A DNA stretch of 30,616 nt from Candidatus Thorarchaeota archaeon (GCA_048882505.1 JBHLRO010000033.1:1-30616), one strand, 5' to 3'; shown: positions 78-7,073, counted from the stretch's first letter. The notes: generated by a model not told the origin, from the sequence alone. Numbers and translations: made by a program.

Positions 78-3000
78 GTGTTTATAAAATGGAGTCAAAA
101 GAACTTGCGAATAAGTCGATGGAAGCATAGGCAACAACTTCGTAGGATTGGGTCACAAATAGTTCTTGTTATATTGTTAAGTTCATTATATGCTCAATTA
201 ACCGAAATCCTGCCTTTTAATAAGTCATTACGGGATGATGAAGTCAATGTGGACAGCCTGGCGGACAATAGTCTTGGAATTAAAGTACCGAGATTAACGA
301 CCGACATAAATCGCGGTTCTGTTTCTGACTTAATTGCAAGTCCACCTTATGATCGTTCCTTTGCTAACCTTGCCATTGGACAGCAATCTGGCGTTGGTGG
401 CGGGATTTATTCTGCCTTTGATTCGTTTAATTGGACCGGAGAAGAAGTCATGAATACCTCTAATACCTACGTATCTGAGAAGCCGACGAGTAACATTGAT
501 TCTCTCACGGTCACTGATCCTGCAGGCTACAACAGACAATATGGTCTGTTTAACATCACAAATGTTTTAGCTGAATATAACAAAACCAATATTGAGGATA
601 CAGACAACTACAATTTCAATTTCCACTGGGATTCTCGGAATATTTTGGCTCCAGGAGACGGTTATTATGAGGTTGCGATGTCATTCGAGATTAAGGAGGC
701 TTTTGCTTATATTAGGACAGTGAGAACTTATATCGCGGGAGTAGCGTCCGCCACTGGAAAAATCTATATTACGAATGCTACGGGCGGGAATGTCCCCAAT
801 GATATCAATATTACATCAAAAGAGGATTTGGGAAGTACAGGGGAAGCTTGGCATGAATATACCTTTGATACGCCCGTTCTGCTACAAGGCGGACAAACCT
901 ACTTTGTAGTTATGAACGAAACAAATGCGGACGATAACAGTGACTATTGGAGATGGTTTTATATCTACGACACAGCGGGAACTGGAGATGGAGTCGATGA
1001 AGGGATTGTTTGTTATAAAGAAGATACACACGCTACTTGGAATACTTTTGCTAGCAGAGATCTTCCTCTTCAACTTGAAATATTACCTGTAGAGTGGAAT
1101 GGTACTCATTACGCTCCCAAAGAATATTCAAATCCTTCTACCCTAGATTTCACATATGAATCCTCCGAAGGTACCACCAAGTTAAGTACGTTTAACCAAT
1201 TTAATTGGAATGATTCAATATGGCATAGATTTGTAACAAATACTTCTGTGTCATTCAATGTGTCCTTTGTGGCCAATTATACATATGGTTCAAATCCAAT
1301 CTTGGCCACTCCCACTTATTTAGTATCCAATGGGTCTGTTACAAGTTGGAATCTCACCTTTACGACACCGAAAGTGAACACTACGTACAGTGTTAGAAAT
1401 CATACCGTGAGAATCGCTAATTTCGAAGCAGACTGGAACGGAACCAACATCTACTGGAATAACACATTAACGCCCCAATTTAGCGATTTACCAGCCAATA
1501 CGAGCGTGTCTCCAGATGGGGACTACAGCAATAGATATCAACATGGGATTCATACTACGATGTATGTGAATGCCAGTGACTTGTCTGAAAACACAACGTG
1601 GCATGTCTGGTTCTCAGCGCCGAATCATCTTCTTAACTTTACTATTGGTCATGGTAATAATCCGCTTGCGTTCCCCTATCAAGCAAACATCACGGATATC
1701 TTGAATCTTACCTTCTATACATCGAGTACGGGAAATTTAACCTACTGGATCGATTATCCCAATGGATCCGCACGCACTAGGCTCAACATTAATCCCACTG
1801 ATACCGTTTTTGGAGAGGAATGGGATATAAACAAGACAGTAGATCAAACTATTAACGTTAACGGAACTTATTGGTTACAGGCCTTTTGGAACAACAGTGG
1901 TCTCACCCAAGTAGGAACTTTCACACGTAAATTGGACATATACGTGAATACATCATTAACTCCGCAAGCTGACGGAGAGGTAATTGTTGGGGAGAAATTT
2001 AATGTTACAGCTCTTTACAGGTCGAAACACAATGACACGGATATCCGTGGAGCAAGGATTTGGGCAAATGCCAGTTGGCCCTTAGGATCAAAACAGAATG
2101 TAACCATGAACCAGCTAGGAGATGATTCCTACAATGCCTCGTTTACAACGATAGGACAAGCTGCGGGTTTTATAGGAACAGTAACAATAAACACTCATTT
2201 AGGATGGTTCGTAAATTGGACGCAAACCATTGTGGTCAAATTTGTTGAAGTTTCAAGCCTGACTGTGAATAAAACCGTTTTAAAACTCCAATGGCGGGAG
2301 AATATGACCCTAAGGATAGACTACAACACCAGTCTCAATAGTGCTATTGAAAATGCGACTGTTACGGTGAACGGGAGTACAACATTTAACGATAGCAACA
2401 ATTTTTACTACTACCGATTAAATACCACTTCTTTCCTAGGAGTGGGGACATATTTAATACCGATCAATGCGAGTCACGGCAATTATTCTTCGCAAAACAT
2501 CGTCATAACGCTTTCAATAACACCAGGTGAGACAGGGATTAACGGATCCTATAAGGGTCAGGCCCTAGCCAACACAACCACTGTTCCTGAAAATCAAATC
2601 TACGCAGCGAGTTCCCAGGATCAAGTCTTCATCAATCTGCGTTATCATTCCACCTATCCCACAGATCTGACGATCAACGTCACACCCTCTGTGAATTCCC
2701 AAGGGATACCAGATGTAAGTTTTCAGTCAGAAACCAATTCGACCTGGACCATCATACTTAATCCTGATGCCATTGGGCTTTTTACAGTTGATGTCACGTT
2801 TGATTGGCCAAATTACTATAATGCAAGTTCTTTTGTCTTCCAAGTTAATGTAATAAGGGCAGCGACCGAGATTACTAGTGGAACAACGTTTCCCTCCTCA
2901 ATATATTTCACCGATAGTTCTGATTTTTATTTACTCTATAATAATACTGTGTATAATGAATTGATTCCCTCGGTTGGCCCAGGGATTAATGATTCCGCAA

Positions 3001-5912: not shown

Positions 5913-7073
5913 GTGTTAAGAAAATTGCGCGTACTTCACGTTGAAGGTAAGAACTTGATTGAACTATCACCCCCTTATGAATTTTTGAATGGTGATGTAT
6001 ATATTGTCGATAACTCGGATGTTTCCGCAGGTCTGCAAAAAAAGGTTTACATCTGGGTTGGATCGCAGGCCTTTGCTGATGATAAAGCTGTAGGAGCTTG
6101 GGCCGCAAAACAGTTGGATTTAAAAGATAAAGAAATCGATATCGACACCGTAACGGAAGGTAATGAACCAGAAGATTTCTCTTCTCTTATCAATTTCGTT
6201 GTGGTTACGGGAGACACGCCAGGATTTCTCAAGCATGTCGACGTTAACGCTGAAGAGGTAAGCTATGCCCTCTATCGGGTTAAAGACGCTGATCTTAGTG
6301 ACGGGTCTTCCTCTGATGATATTGTAATCGAGAACGTTCCTATGACATCCGATAGCCTAGTCTCTGATGATGTGTTTGTCCTGGATGCCTATCACGATTT
6401 GTATGTCTGGATAGGATCTGGTAGTCAGGTAGGAGAAAAGGCAGCAGGAAATCGGTTGGTAAGGAAGCTCGATGTAGATCGTGAGAGAAATCCAATGATC
6501 TACACGATTCATCAGTATAAGGAGCCCCCAGGCTTTTTCGAATTGATGGCCAACATCGCTGGTTCTGGAAAAATACGAAAAGGAGACGCCTCTCAAATCG
6601 GAAAAGGAATCACAGACCGAGCAGCAAACATTCCATCTTTAGGCGCACCACCACCCTCTGGAATTCCAGAAGTTAAGCCAATGCCGAAACCGTCGGCTCC
6701 TGCTGATTTTAGAGAAGAGCCTAGCCCCAGAGATCTTGGATTAACTTCTACTGCGACAACACCACCTCCTGTCAGTAGTGCAGTGGTAAAATTATATTAT
6801 AACCATGCTTCTCAAGCATTCAGTGAAAGGGGCAGCAAAGACGAGGCCGTTCTGGAAATTGACGAAGCAAATCAAATGGCCAGACTGATCTTTTCGGAAA
6901 GTTCCGGTTTGATTTTGCAGCGGACAGCTAGCAGACAGGCACGGGGAATTTGTAGAACTGGCTTTCTACTCTCTGATGGCAAACGAGTGGGTCAAAACTG
7001 TAGTCTTTCGGAATTTAAGGGCGAAATGTCAATTGACGATCGTTTGTTACAAGTCGGTCATCATTACAGATAA
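5913..7073 (+). CDS. Gelsolin-family protein: two gelsolin repeats, Pro-rich linker and unassigned C-terminal domain
   Basis: Repeat 1: FLNGDVYIVD..KVYIWVGSQA..K..GAWAAKQLD..EGNEPEDF. Repeat 2: SLVSDDVFVLDAYHDLYVWIGSGSQVGEKAAG..KEPPGFF. Inter-repeat GFLKHV resembles the FKHV motif of gelsolin. The linker contains GAPPPSGIPEVKPMPKPSAP..TTPPPV. Confidence 0.9.
   Translation: MLRKLRVLHVEGKNLIELSPPYEFLNGDVYIVDNSDVSAGLQKKVYIWVGSQAFADDKAVGAWAAKQLDLKDKEIDIDTVTEGNEPEDFSSLINFVVVTGDTPGFLKHVDVNAEEVSYALYRVKDADLSDGSSSDDIVIENVPMTSDSLVSDDVFVLDAYHDLYVWIGSGSQVGEKAAGNRLVRKLDVDRERNPMIYTIHQYKEPPGFFELMANIAGSGKIRKGDASQIGKGITDRAANIPSLGAPPPSGIPEVKPMPKPSAPADFREEPSPRDLGLTSTATTPPPVSSAVVKLYYNHASQAFSERGSKDEAVLEIDEANQMARLIFSESSGLILQRTASRQARGICRTGFLLSDGKRVGQNCSLSEFKGEMSIDDRLLQVGHHYR

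Follow-up and report, generated by a model that had tools for sequence, protein, structure and literature searches.

Positions 78-7073 of contig JBHLRO010000033.1 of an Asgard archaeon, a stretch of 30,616 nucleotides (nt) that we call the window, hold three open reading frames (ORFs), all in the same orientation. ORF1 encodes a large surface glycoprotein whose cytoplasmic tail is predicted to adopt a longin fold, ORF2 a soluble protein with two predicted longin/roadblock-type domains and a long C-terminal helix, and ORF3 a gelsolin. We propose that translational coupling joins ORF1 and ORF2 into a unit that would place a longin regulator of a small GTPase at the membrane, a reading to which we give about an even chance. 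An earlier reading of the same DNA, here called the original prediction, had described three consecutive co-oriented genes, and these are indeed present.

The window is contig C33 of a 4.3-Mb genome (G000) that is 94.5% complete. We assign it to a Hodarchaeales archaeon because its homologues carry the names Candidatus Hodarchaeales, Hodarchaeota or Heimdallarchaeota. The linkage counts given below refer to genomes of the window's own GTDB genus (Hodarchaeales), which are related, generally syntenic and non-independent; G016 denotes the sister species. All features are listed in Table 1.

Longin-type folds predicted for the receptor tail and for ORF2

The ectodomain of ORF1 carries 64 N-x-S/T sequons, compared with 23.5 ± 4.1 in shuffled sequences, and the tail carries one. 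This distribution indicates an outside-N, inside-C topology and identifies ORF1 as a glycoprotein. Neither ORF1 nor its halves nor its tail matched a Pfam family in any part; for the ectodomain, a language-model search gave a lead only (score 0.86), to immunoglobulin (Ig)-like or lectin-like archaeal surface domains. An alignment of 32 sequences served to model the tail with AlphaFold2 (AF2). The model has a mean predicted local distance difference test score (pLDDT) of 81.6 and consists of a juxtamembrane helix, a beta-beta-alpha-beta-beta-beta-alpha-alpha domain and a small alpha/beta domain, in this order. Foldseek matched the middle domain to Sec22b (TM-score 0.67 by target, probability 1.00) and also to VAMP7 and the sigma subunits of AP adaptors. 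The best matches in VIA were synbindin (Z 12.5), Sec22 (Z 12.4) and sedlin (Z 11.9), across 120-130 residues. Judged by the topology of the model and its matches to solved longins, the middle domain is thus a predicted longin. It does not contain the GP (Gly-Pro) motif that is described below for ORF2; in the tail alignment, G43 is invariant and R39 nearly so. The last ~85 residues of the tail gave one structural match, 6ec8_A (Z 9.1, root mean square deviation (rmsd) 3.2 Å, 86 residues aligned).

When used as the query of an exhaustive HMMER search, the 255-residue tail retrieved 64 cluster representatives. Among the longer of these (up to 2868 amino acids (aa)), almost all have the match at their extreme C-terminus, and the family members whose names were looked up all belong to Hodarchaeales or Heimdallarchaeota. 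Leaving aside those truncated at the end of a contig, ORF1 orthologues vary in length between ~735 and 2265 aa; their ectodomain is variable and their tail conserved, with 58-69% identity in most of them. The mean protein distance of the tail (0.365) is close to that of seryl-tRNA synthetase (SerRS; 0.32), with ORF2 at 0.559; by this sequence measure, conservation of the tail is comparable to that of the synthetase.

Two further observations concern the tail profile and an ORF1 orthologue. An 891-aa HerA/DUF87-type ATPase (G000:C30:21973-24648, locus L013 6973-9645) matches the receptor-tail longin profile with residues 520-665 (E 5e-8). In a closed genome, the ~5 kb 5' of the ORF1 orthologue (locus L006 1-5400, G009:C1:2110000-2115400) hold only short ORFs of <270 aa, many of them overlapping, which is unusual compared with the gene density elsewhere.

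The AF2 model of ORF2, based on 46 orthologues (pLDDT 84), shows two beta-beta-alpha-beta-beta-beta-alpha domains (residues 3-102 and 105-228) and a 66-residue helix. In VIA, domain 1 matched the VAMP7 longin domain (Z 10.7) as well as Mon1, LAMTOR and MglB (Z ~9-10). For domain 2, the best match was the Lokiarchaeota Roadblock-Longin protein 8yqg (Z 12.7, rmsd 3.3 Å, 145 residues aligned), and further matches were Lst4, the yeast FNIP (Z 10.7), GATOR1 (8fw5_B, Z 10.3), the FLCN complex (6nzd_H, Z 9.8) and C9orf72-SMCR8 (Z 9.2). In the ESM Atlas, the model falls next to clusters annotated with Pfam Folliculin (23% of members, Heimdallarchaeota), NPR2, C9orf72-like and DENND10/Avl9. Both domains are therefore predicted to have a longin/roadblock fold. 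The original prediction of longin folds in the ORF1 tail and in ORF2 is supported by these models and their Foldseek and VIA matches, and the uDENN/FLCN-type character that it had ascribed to ORF2 is borne out by the structural neighbours of domain 2 together with a short motif.

This motif is G118-P119 (FDDVEGPKVIYN), which lies at the start of the strand formed by residues 118-124, as expected for GP-type longins. Among the 46 orthologues G118, G190 and R191 are invariant, and at least 90% of the sequences share P119, D183 and R185. In four paralogues of domain 2 encoded in G000, residues G118, P119, D183, R185 and R191 are invariant, and a D-x-R-x5-R segment is common to them. By this conservation, R185 and R191 are candidate arginine fingers; the eukaryotic arginine fingers are R164 of FLCN, R78 of NPRL2 and R147 of SMCR8. 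FLCN, NPRL2, SMCR8 and C9orf72 are reported to carry a Gly-Pro where the beta1-beta2 loop ends, a feature absent from FNIP2, NPRL3 and other longins that are not GTPase-activating proteins (GAPs) (PMC12290439). The same study described a class of Heimdallarchaeial longins with the same GP and arginine finger and left their GTPase partners as a question (PMC12290439).

At the level of sequence, Pfam searches at E ≤ 10 with ORF1, its halves and tail, ORF2, its domains, the 46 orthologues and the four paralogues returned coiled-coil noise only. More specifically, ORF2, its domains and its paralogues did not match Folliculin (PF11704), NPR2 (PF06218), uDENN or Avl9 at this threshold. ORF2 therefore shares fold class and motif with these families, without being counted as a member of them. 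Profile searches of PDB sequences yielded nothing relevant, BLASTP detected no similarity between the tail and ORF2, and a search of a large protein collection with domain 2 alone retrieved only orthologues, all named "hypothetical". A tri-longin subunit of a Rab guanine nucleotide exchange factor (GEF), as in Mon1, Ccz1, HPS1/4, Fuzzy and Inturned, was considered for ORF2 and rejected; ORF2 has two longins, not three, and its matches to these chains have a full-length rmsd above 15 Å.

Linkage of ORF1 and ORF2, and GTPase genes at paralogous loci

The stop codon of ORF1 (TAA, 4695-4697) is followed by an AGGAGG motif and by a CTG at position 4712. The ORF2 frame is open from 4667 (the upstream stop ends at 4666), and the ORF list lets it begin at TTG 4844; between the upstream stop and TTG 4844 there is no in-frame ATG, GTG or TTG. 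The 44 additional residues (ETYRFWLINDQG...) that a start at CTG 4712 provides, which gene callers drop from ORF2, are kept in every homologue; these proteins, of 300-315 aa, start with M-x-x-x-[FY]-YRFWL. G016, whose protein is 92% identical, has the same AAAGGAGGA-N7-CTG arrangement without a canonical start, and more distant orthologues have an ATG at the site equivalent to the CTG. In a third relative (75% identical), the gene call is short at its N-terminus, and the upstream gene ends ~12 nt before the expected start. Taken together, the best reading of the alignment is that CTG 4712 is the ORF2 start. The tight coupling noted in the original prediction, a 14-nt gap with an AGGAGG, agrees with these coordinates and recurs in G016, provided that CTG 4712 is the start; other orthologous loci have small gaps too (6 and 45 nt).

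Full-length ORF2 was found in 20 of 22 genomes of the genus, including G000, with 53-92% identity; outside the genus only domain 2 was matched, within other proteins. A tail-bearing gene lies directly 5' of ORF2 at all 18 loci (17 genomes) for which the upstream DNA is assembled, and in two more genomes the contig ends directly upstream of ORF2. The synteny check proposed originally thus revealed a conserved linkage. G015 is informative in this regard: the ORF1-ORF2 pair is kept there although the flanks differ, and the gelsolin gene lies 146 kb away. G006, G008 and G010 yielded no gelsolin and no ORF2, or only weak domain-2 matches; the region is unassembled in them. These absences are uninformative because G006 and G010 also lack SerRS and the G008 contig begins 1.7 kb before SerRS. 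Since full-length ORF2 was found in one genus only, all linkage counts come from related, syntenic genomes. In four other families, no ORF2 or Ras gene lies immediately next to the distant tail-bearing genes; the genes downstream encode a ~1620-1640 aa protein, GcvH, protoglobin and others. The ORF1-ORF2 pairing is therefore seen in one genus.

We also compared protein distance matrices of the tail, ORF2, the gelsolin and SerRS across 13 genomes. The correlation between tail and ORF2 was the highest of all pairs (r 0.96), and the partial r remained at 0.80 when controlled for SerRS and at 0.73 when controlled for the gelsolin; the partial r between ORF2 and gelsolin controlled for the tail was 0.28. 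This covariation lends weak support to an association of the two proteins because their genes adjoin in related genomes. A complex prediction with tail residues 20-255 and ORF2 from family alignments reached a best score of 0.08 (mark 0.32), which speaks neither for nor against binding.

Paralogues of both proteins lie next to small GTPase genes. G000 holds two further tail-bearing receptors. One of them (G000:C9:75924-81836, locus L008 4922-10819, minus strand) is a distant receptor of 1616 aa followed by a co-oriented Ras-family gene. The genus has at least 13 further genomes with this adjacency of tail and Ras gene, and some of them show a second GTPase gene or a tandem pair of receptors at the locus. 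The other (G000:C5:105132-109775, locus L007 1633-6276) is a 1547-aa paralogue of ORF1, 45% identical over its full length (tail E ~1e-98); its neighbourhood is described below. On the side of ORF2, a tight run of four genes (G000:C4:33208-37157, locus L011 4711-8657, minus strand) encodes, in order, a Gtr1/RagA-like GTPase, a weakly GTPase-like protein, a GP-longin paralogue of ORF2 domain 2 and a second Gtr1/RagA-like GTPase. This run is a candidate archaeal Rag and longin-GAP operon. In addition, at G000:C1:14082-30099 (locus L012) a gene for a 3684-aa protein is directly followed by that of a Gtr1/RagA-like GTPase, and two genes on, the gene for a 347-aa GP-longin paralogue faces a second Gtr1/RagA-like gene in convergent orientation. 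These arrangements suggest that both longin families are tied to small GTPase genes, through loci outside the window and in non-independent genomes. The general connection of the longin families with small GTPases that had been envisaged at the outset is thereby upheld. An adjacent GTPase gene, by which MglB-MglA and conservon modules are recognised, is absent from the window locus and present at the paralogous loci.

Proposed mechanism, the gelsolin gene and alternative explanations

In the mechanism that we propose, the GP-less longin of the tail would be a non-catalytic partner, like FNIP, NPRL3 or C9orf72, and ORF2 the catalytic partner, probably of GAP type; a GAP is favoured over a GEF because of the GP motif. 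Their client would be a Rag/Arf/Rab-like GTPase whose gene lies elsewhere, and the ectodomain could set the place or time of GTPase regulation. The coiled coil of ORF2 probably dimerises the protein or docks it on the juxtamembrane helix. What the analysis shows is the layout of the genes, the signals of topology, the predicted folds, the motifs and the conserved adjacency; physical pairing, a GAP rather than a GEF or scaffold activity, the client GTPase and any signal flow are inferred.

Several observations weigh against this proposal. The ORF1-ORF2 unit contains no small GTPase gene; there is none in 78-7073, and the nearest lies 6.1 kb away on the opposite strand. Full-length ORF2 was found in a single genus only, and the G000:C5 receptor has no ORF2-like neighbour, the next gene encoding a 393-aa zinc-ribbon protein, so a tail need not have a dedicated ORF2. 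A fused receptor-ORF2 protein of 539-2000 aa was looked for and not found, which is weak evidence. Neither protein matches the Pfam longin, Folliculin, NPR2 or DENN models or PDB sequences, and the longin assignments therefore rest on predicted fold and short motifs. R185 and R191 are candidates for the arginine finger of FLCN, NPRL2 and SMCR8 on the basis of their conservation among orthologues and paralogues. Finally, after domain 2 the ORF2 model has only one long helix (241-306); ORF2 thus does not have a DENN domain or the C-terminal modules of eukaryotic GAP subunits.

Some of these points would also fit an alternative that we consider unlikely, in which the two proteins are co-expressed without forming a heterodimer, the tail docking a GTPase directly (as SRX of SR-alpha binds SR-beta) and ORF2 being a homodimeric coiled-coil regulator or scaffold. 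Paralogous receptors do pair with Ras genes in the absence of ORF2, and the G000:C5 paralogue has neither an ORF2 nor a Ras neighbour. Moreover, the tail longin is closer to the SNARE, TRAPP, adaptor-sigma and SRX class than to the FNIP/NPRL3 class, and the longin domain of the Loki Roadblock-Longin protein was crystallised as a homodimer (title of 8yqg). The strict adjacency and apparent translational coupling of ORF2 to this receptor class argue against such an independence of the two proteins, as does the tail-ORF2 correlation, the highest among the distance matrices.

The third gene of the window locus had been predicted to encode a two-repeat gelsolin, and Pfam confirms this: Gelsolin (PF00626) matches in two stretches (E 9e-23, 80.4 bits for the whole protein), and the repeats, scored alone, reach 31.9 and 54 bits, the cut-off being 21. 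Behind the repeats come a Pro-rich linker and then a C-terminal domain. The latter had no Pfam match, gave weak language-model leads (up to 0.82) to gelsolin-like or small Thorarchaeota proteins, and also occurs free-standing (~95 aa) in genomes of the genus, for example at G000:C1:406657-406893. Gelsolin orthologues begin with M-R-V-L-H-V, which aligns with TTG 5925. Of the gene starts given originally, the gelsolin start at GTG 5913 is accordingly corrected to TTG 5925, and ORF1 begins at the GTG at 78 or, possibly, at TTG 105. Outside the genus, the orthologues (Heimdallarchaeia) are plain two-repeat gelsolins of 209-299 aa without the C-terminal domain, and neither receptor nor longin genes lie next to them.

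An AT-rich spacer of 117-330 nt precedes the gelsolin gene in all orthologues. In the comparison of the window with G016, the spacer just past the ORF2 stop is 62-78% identical and third codon positions are 76% identical, and a block further into the spacer is conserved more strongly (Table 1). The region of this block contains a TATA-like TTTTATAT and a hairpin (GGAACC-N6-GGTTCC, 5868-5885). The consensus of the promoter and terminator scan was bacterial sigma-70 and not archaeal, and only the hairpin was taken from it. The spacer had no Rfam match. Since an AT-rich spacer and a conserved block lie just upstream of the gelsolin gene, this block probably represents the gene's own promoter and leader.

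The gelsolin gene follows ORF2 in 18 of 19 genomes, the exception being G015. The block of SerRS, PAC2, CDC48, HSP20, Ras and phosphoesterase genes is syntenic throughout the genus, and for this reason the adjacency of the gelsolin and of the Rab-like gene carries little weight. We therefore treat the gelsolin as a conserved neighbour and count it outside the ORF1-ORF2 unit; a link to actin is possible and rests on synteny only. The connection of the module with gelsolin and actin that was drawn originally does not hold up well, as it stems from adjacency in one genus, is broken in G015 and is met by a spacer that points to a separate promoter. The Rab-like gene that had been placed about 6 kb away does exist at 6.1 kb; its suggested role as a client finds no backing, the gene being part of the long syntenic block and absent from within 5 kb of the G015 pair.

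Under a wider model, the tail-ORF2 heterodimer would control a GTPase (e.g. the one encoded at 13200-13796) and, directly or through this GTPase, the gelsolin, resulting in a surface-to-actin pathway. The position of the gelsolin gene behind ORF2 in 18 of 19 genomes speaks for it, and so does the occurrence of the gelsolin C-terminal domain only in the genus that has full-length ORF2. Furthermore, in L. ossiferum an Arf GTPase was co-immunoprecipitated with Lokiactin alongside gelsolins (PMC13716822). Nevertheless, we regard this model as quite unlikely, given that the G015 pair has neither a nearby gelsolin (146 kb) nor a Ras-like gene within 5 kb, that synteny of the whole block leaves the adjacency with little weight, that spacer and conserved block suggest a separate gelsolin promoter, and that gelsolins outside the genus do not neighbour receptors or longins. 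A complete outside-in pathway, leading from ligand binding or adhesion of the ectodomain through the tail-ORF2 longin GAP (or GEF) and a Rag/Arf/Rab-like GTPase to the genus-specific linker and C-terminal domain of the gelsolin and to local actin remodelling, is more doubtful still. If true, signalling that runs from a receptor through a small GTPase to actin would have a prokaryotic forerunner in an archaeon closely related to eukaryotes.

The remaining explanation, in which longin tail and ORF2 would sort, anchor or turn over an abundant surface or adhesion glycoprotein without any GTPase control, be it in an adaptor-like or SNARE-longin-like role or by coiled-coil anchoring to a cytoplasmic structure, draws on longins of SNAREs and of adaptor sigma/mu subunits that work without GTPases and are among the best tail matches, on a unit without a GTPase gene and on an ectodomain that resembles (as a lead only) a generic glycosylated Ig/lectin-type surface protein, but is very unlikely in view of the GP motif and invariant arginines of domain 2, reported only for GAP-class longins (PMC12290439), and of the GTPase genes that adjoin paralogues of both families.

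Relation to known systems and feature coordinates

The proposed pair of receptor tail and GP-longin resembles FLCN-FNIP, GATOR1 NPRL2-NPRL3 and C9orf72-SMCR8 in the fold of domain 2 (VIA Z 9.2-10.7), the Gly-Pro and the invariant arginines. As in these eukaryotic longin GAP complexes, a second, GP-less longin is encoded alongside (the ORF1 tail, 14 nt upstream), and paralogues adjoin Rag/Gtr1-like GTPases. In contrast to them, a coiled coil in ORF2 replaces the DENN/NPRL C-terminal modules, an extra longin/roadblock domain is present at the N-terminus, and the longin that would serve as partner belongs to the tail of a transmembrane glycoprotein; sequence similarity to the eukaryotic complexes is absent, and the likeness is known here from predicted structures. 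Alike in lineage (Heimdallarchaeia), fold class and GP plus arginine signature are the GP-motif "Folliculin/SMCR8-type" Asgard longins (PMC12290439). ORF2 differs from the published Asgard GP-longins in its coupling to a single-pass surface receptor that has a longin tail of its own. NPRL2/FLCN-like longins of Asgard archaea, their fusions to two-component signalling domains and a Roadblock/Rab/DENN operon have been described (bioRxiv 10.1101/2020.10.19.343400); in the literature that we searched there was no description of a single-pass glycoprotein receptor with a longin tail coupled to a GP-longin protein.

The Lokiarchaeota Roadblock-Longin protein (8yqg, longin dimer; 8yqk, roadblock) shares the two-domain order of ORF2. 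The match of 8yqk to the ORF2 model (Z 8.1, 95 residues aligned) extends over model residues 1-263 and is not confined to domain 1. ORF2 bears an additional 66-residue coiled coil, and its sequence shows no detectable similarity to the Loki protein. Ragulator (LAMTOR1 and roadblock dimers) is similar in that it offers Rag-type GTPases a membrane-anchored platform made of roadblock/longin-superfamily proteins; it differs in that its anchor is a lipidated scaffold and not the transmembrane helix of a large surface protein, and in its domain types.

Among characterised prokaryotic systems, Streptomyces conservons and MglA/MglB combine a roadblock-type protein with a Ras-like GTPase, and the conservon adds a membrane sensor kinase (PMC4316618). 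The logic of membrane sensor, roadblock/longin protein and Ras-like GTPase in conservons (CvnA-D) and MglA-MglB is similar to that proposed here, and the paralogous loci with receptor plus Ras gene fit it. In contrast to conservons, the sensor is a glycosylated receptor-like protein with a longin tail instead of a histidine kinase, and the window locus has no GTPase gene. The statement in the original prediction that no prokaryotic system of this kind had been characterised was too strong, considering conservons and MglA/MglB (PMC4316618) as well as the published NPRL2/FLCN-like longins of Asgard archaea (bioRxiv 10.1101/2020.10.19.343400; PMC12290439). ORF3, in turn, is like the Asgard two-domain gelsolins (2DGel; PMC7444086, PMC9433394) in having two gelsolin repeats, and unlike them in its Pro-rich linker and C-terminal domain of ~95 aa.

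Asgard archaea encode dozens of small GTPases as well as longin and roadblock proteins, whose wiring is largely unknown, and gene layout rarely reveals pairs of GTPase and regulator in these organisms (Tran et al., PMC10933270). The locus described here offers a defined, testable pair of receptor tail and GP-longin in Hodarchaeales, with paralogous loci that point to Ras-like and Rag-like clients. If both the pairing and the activity proved true, anchoring of longin GTPase regulators by transmembrane receptors would predate eukaryotes, and the FLCN/GATOR1-type catalytic longin would have worked first at the plasma membrane, not at the lysosome.

Table 1. Features of the three-gene locus and the nearest small GTPase gene (window coordinates)
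Feature	Position	Strand	Basis or remark
ORF1, single-pass surface glycoprotein, 1539 aa	78-4697	+	start GTG 78 or TTG 105
N-terminal hydrophobic signal or anchor segment, residues ~28-41	159-200	+	hydropathy
Ectodomain	201-3857	+	64 N-x-S/T sequons, one Cys
Transmembrane helix, residues 1261-1288, followed by basic stop-transfer stretch	3858-3941	+	hydropathy, sequence
Predicted longin of cytoplasmic tail, residues 1316-1454	4023-4439	+	model, structural matches
Small C-terminal alpha/beta domain of tail, residues 1456-1539, possibly winged-helix-like	4443-4694	+	model
AGGAGG, Shine-Dalgarno-like motif	4699-4704	+	7 nt 5' of CTG 4712; kept in G016
ORF2, soluble, 307 aa	4712-5635	+	CTG 4712 start
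ORF2 domain 1, residues 1-102, predicted longin/roadblock-superfamily fold	4712-5017	+	AF2, VIA
ORF2 domain 2, residues 103-230, predicted folliculin/NPRL2/SMCR8-type longin	5018-5401	+	AF2, VIA, Atlas
Gly118-Pro119, end of beta1-beta2 loop, domain 2	5063-5068	+	conserved in orthologues and paralogues
D183-P-R185-x4-G190-R191, before last strand of domain 2	5258-5284	+	conserved in orthologues and paralogues
C-terminal long helix, residues 241-306, leucine-zipper-like heptads	5432-5629	+	AF2 model
Conserved non-coding block	5756-5875	+	90-95% identical to G016
ORF3, gelsolin	5913-7073	+	probable start TTG 5925
Gelsolin repeats	~5982-6179, ~6330-6536	+	Pfam
Pro-rich linker	~6585-6782	+	
Extra C-terminal domain, ~95 aa	6783-7070	+	
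Ras/Rab-like GTPase (context only)	13200-13796	-	6.1 kb from the module

The Ras/Rab-like gene in the last row of the table lies 2 nt from a gene for a calcineurin-like metallophosphoesterase (13200-14512, minus strand), and this gene pair is kept in relatives (locus L003).

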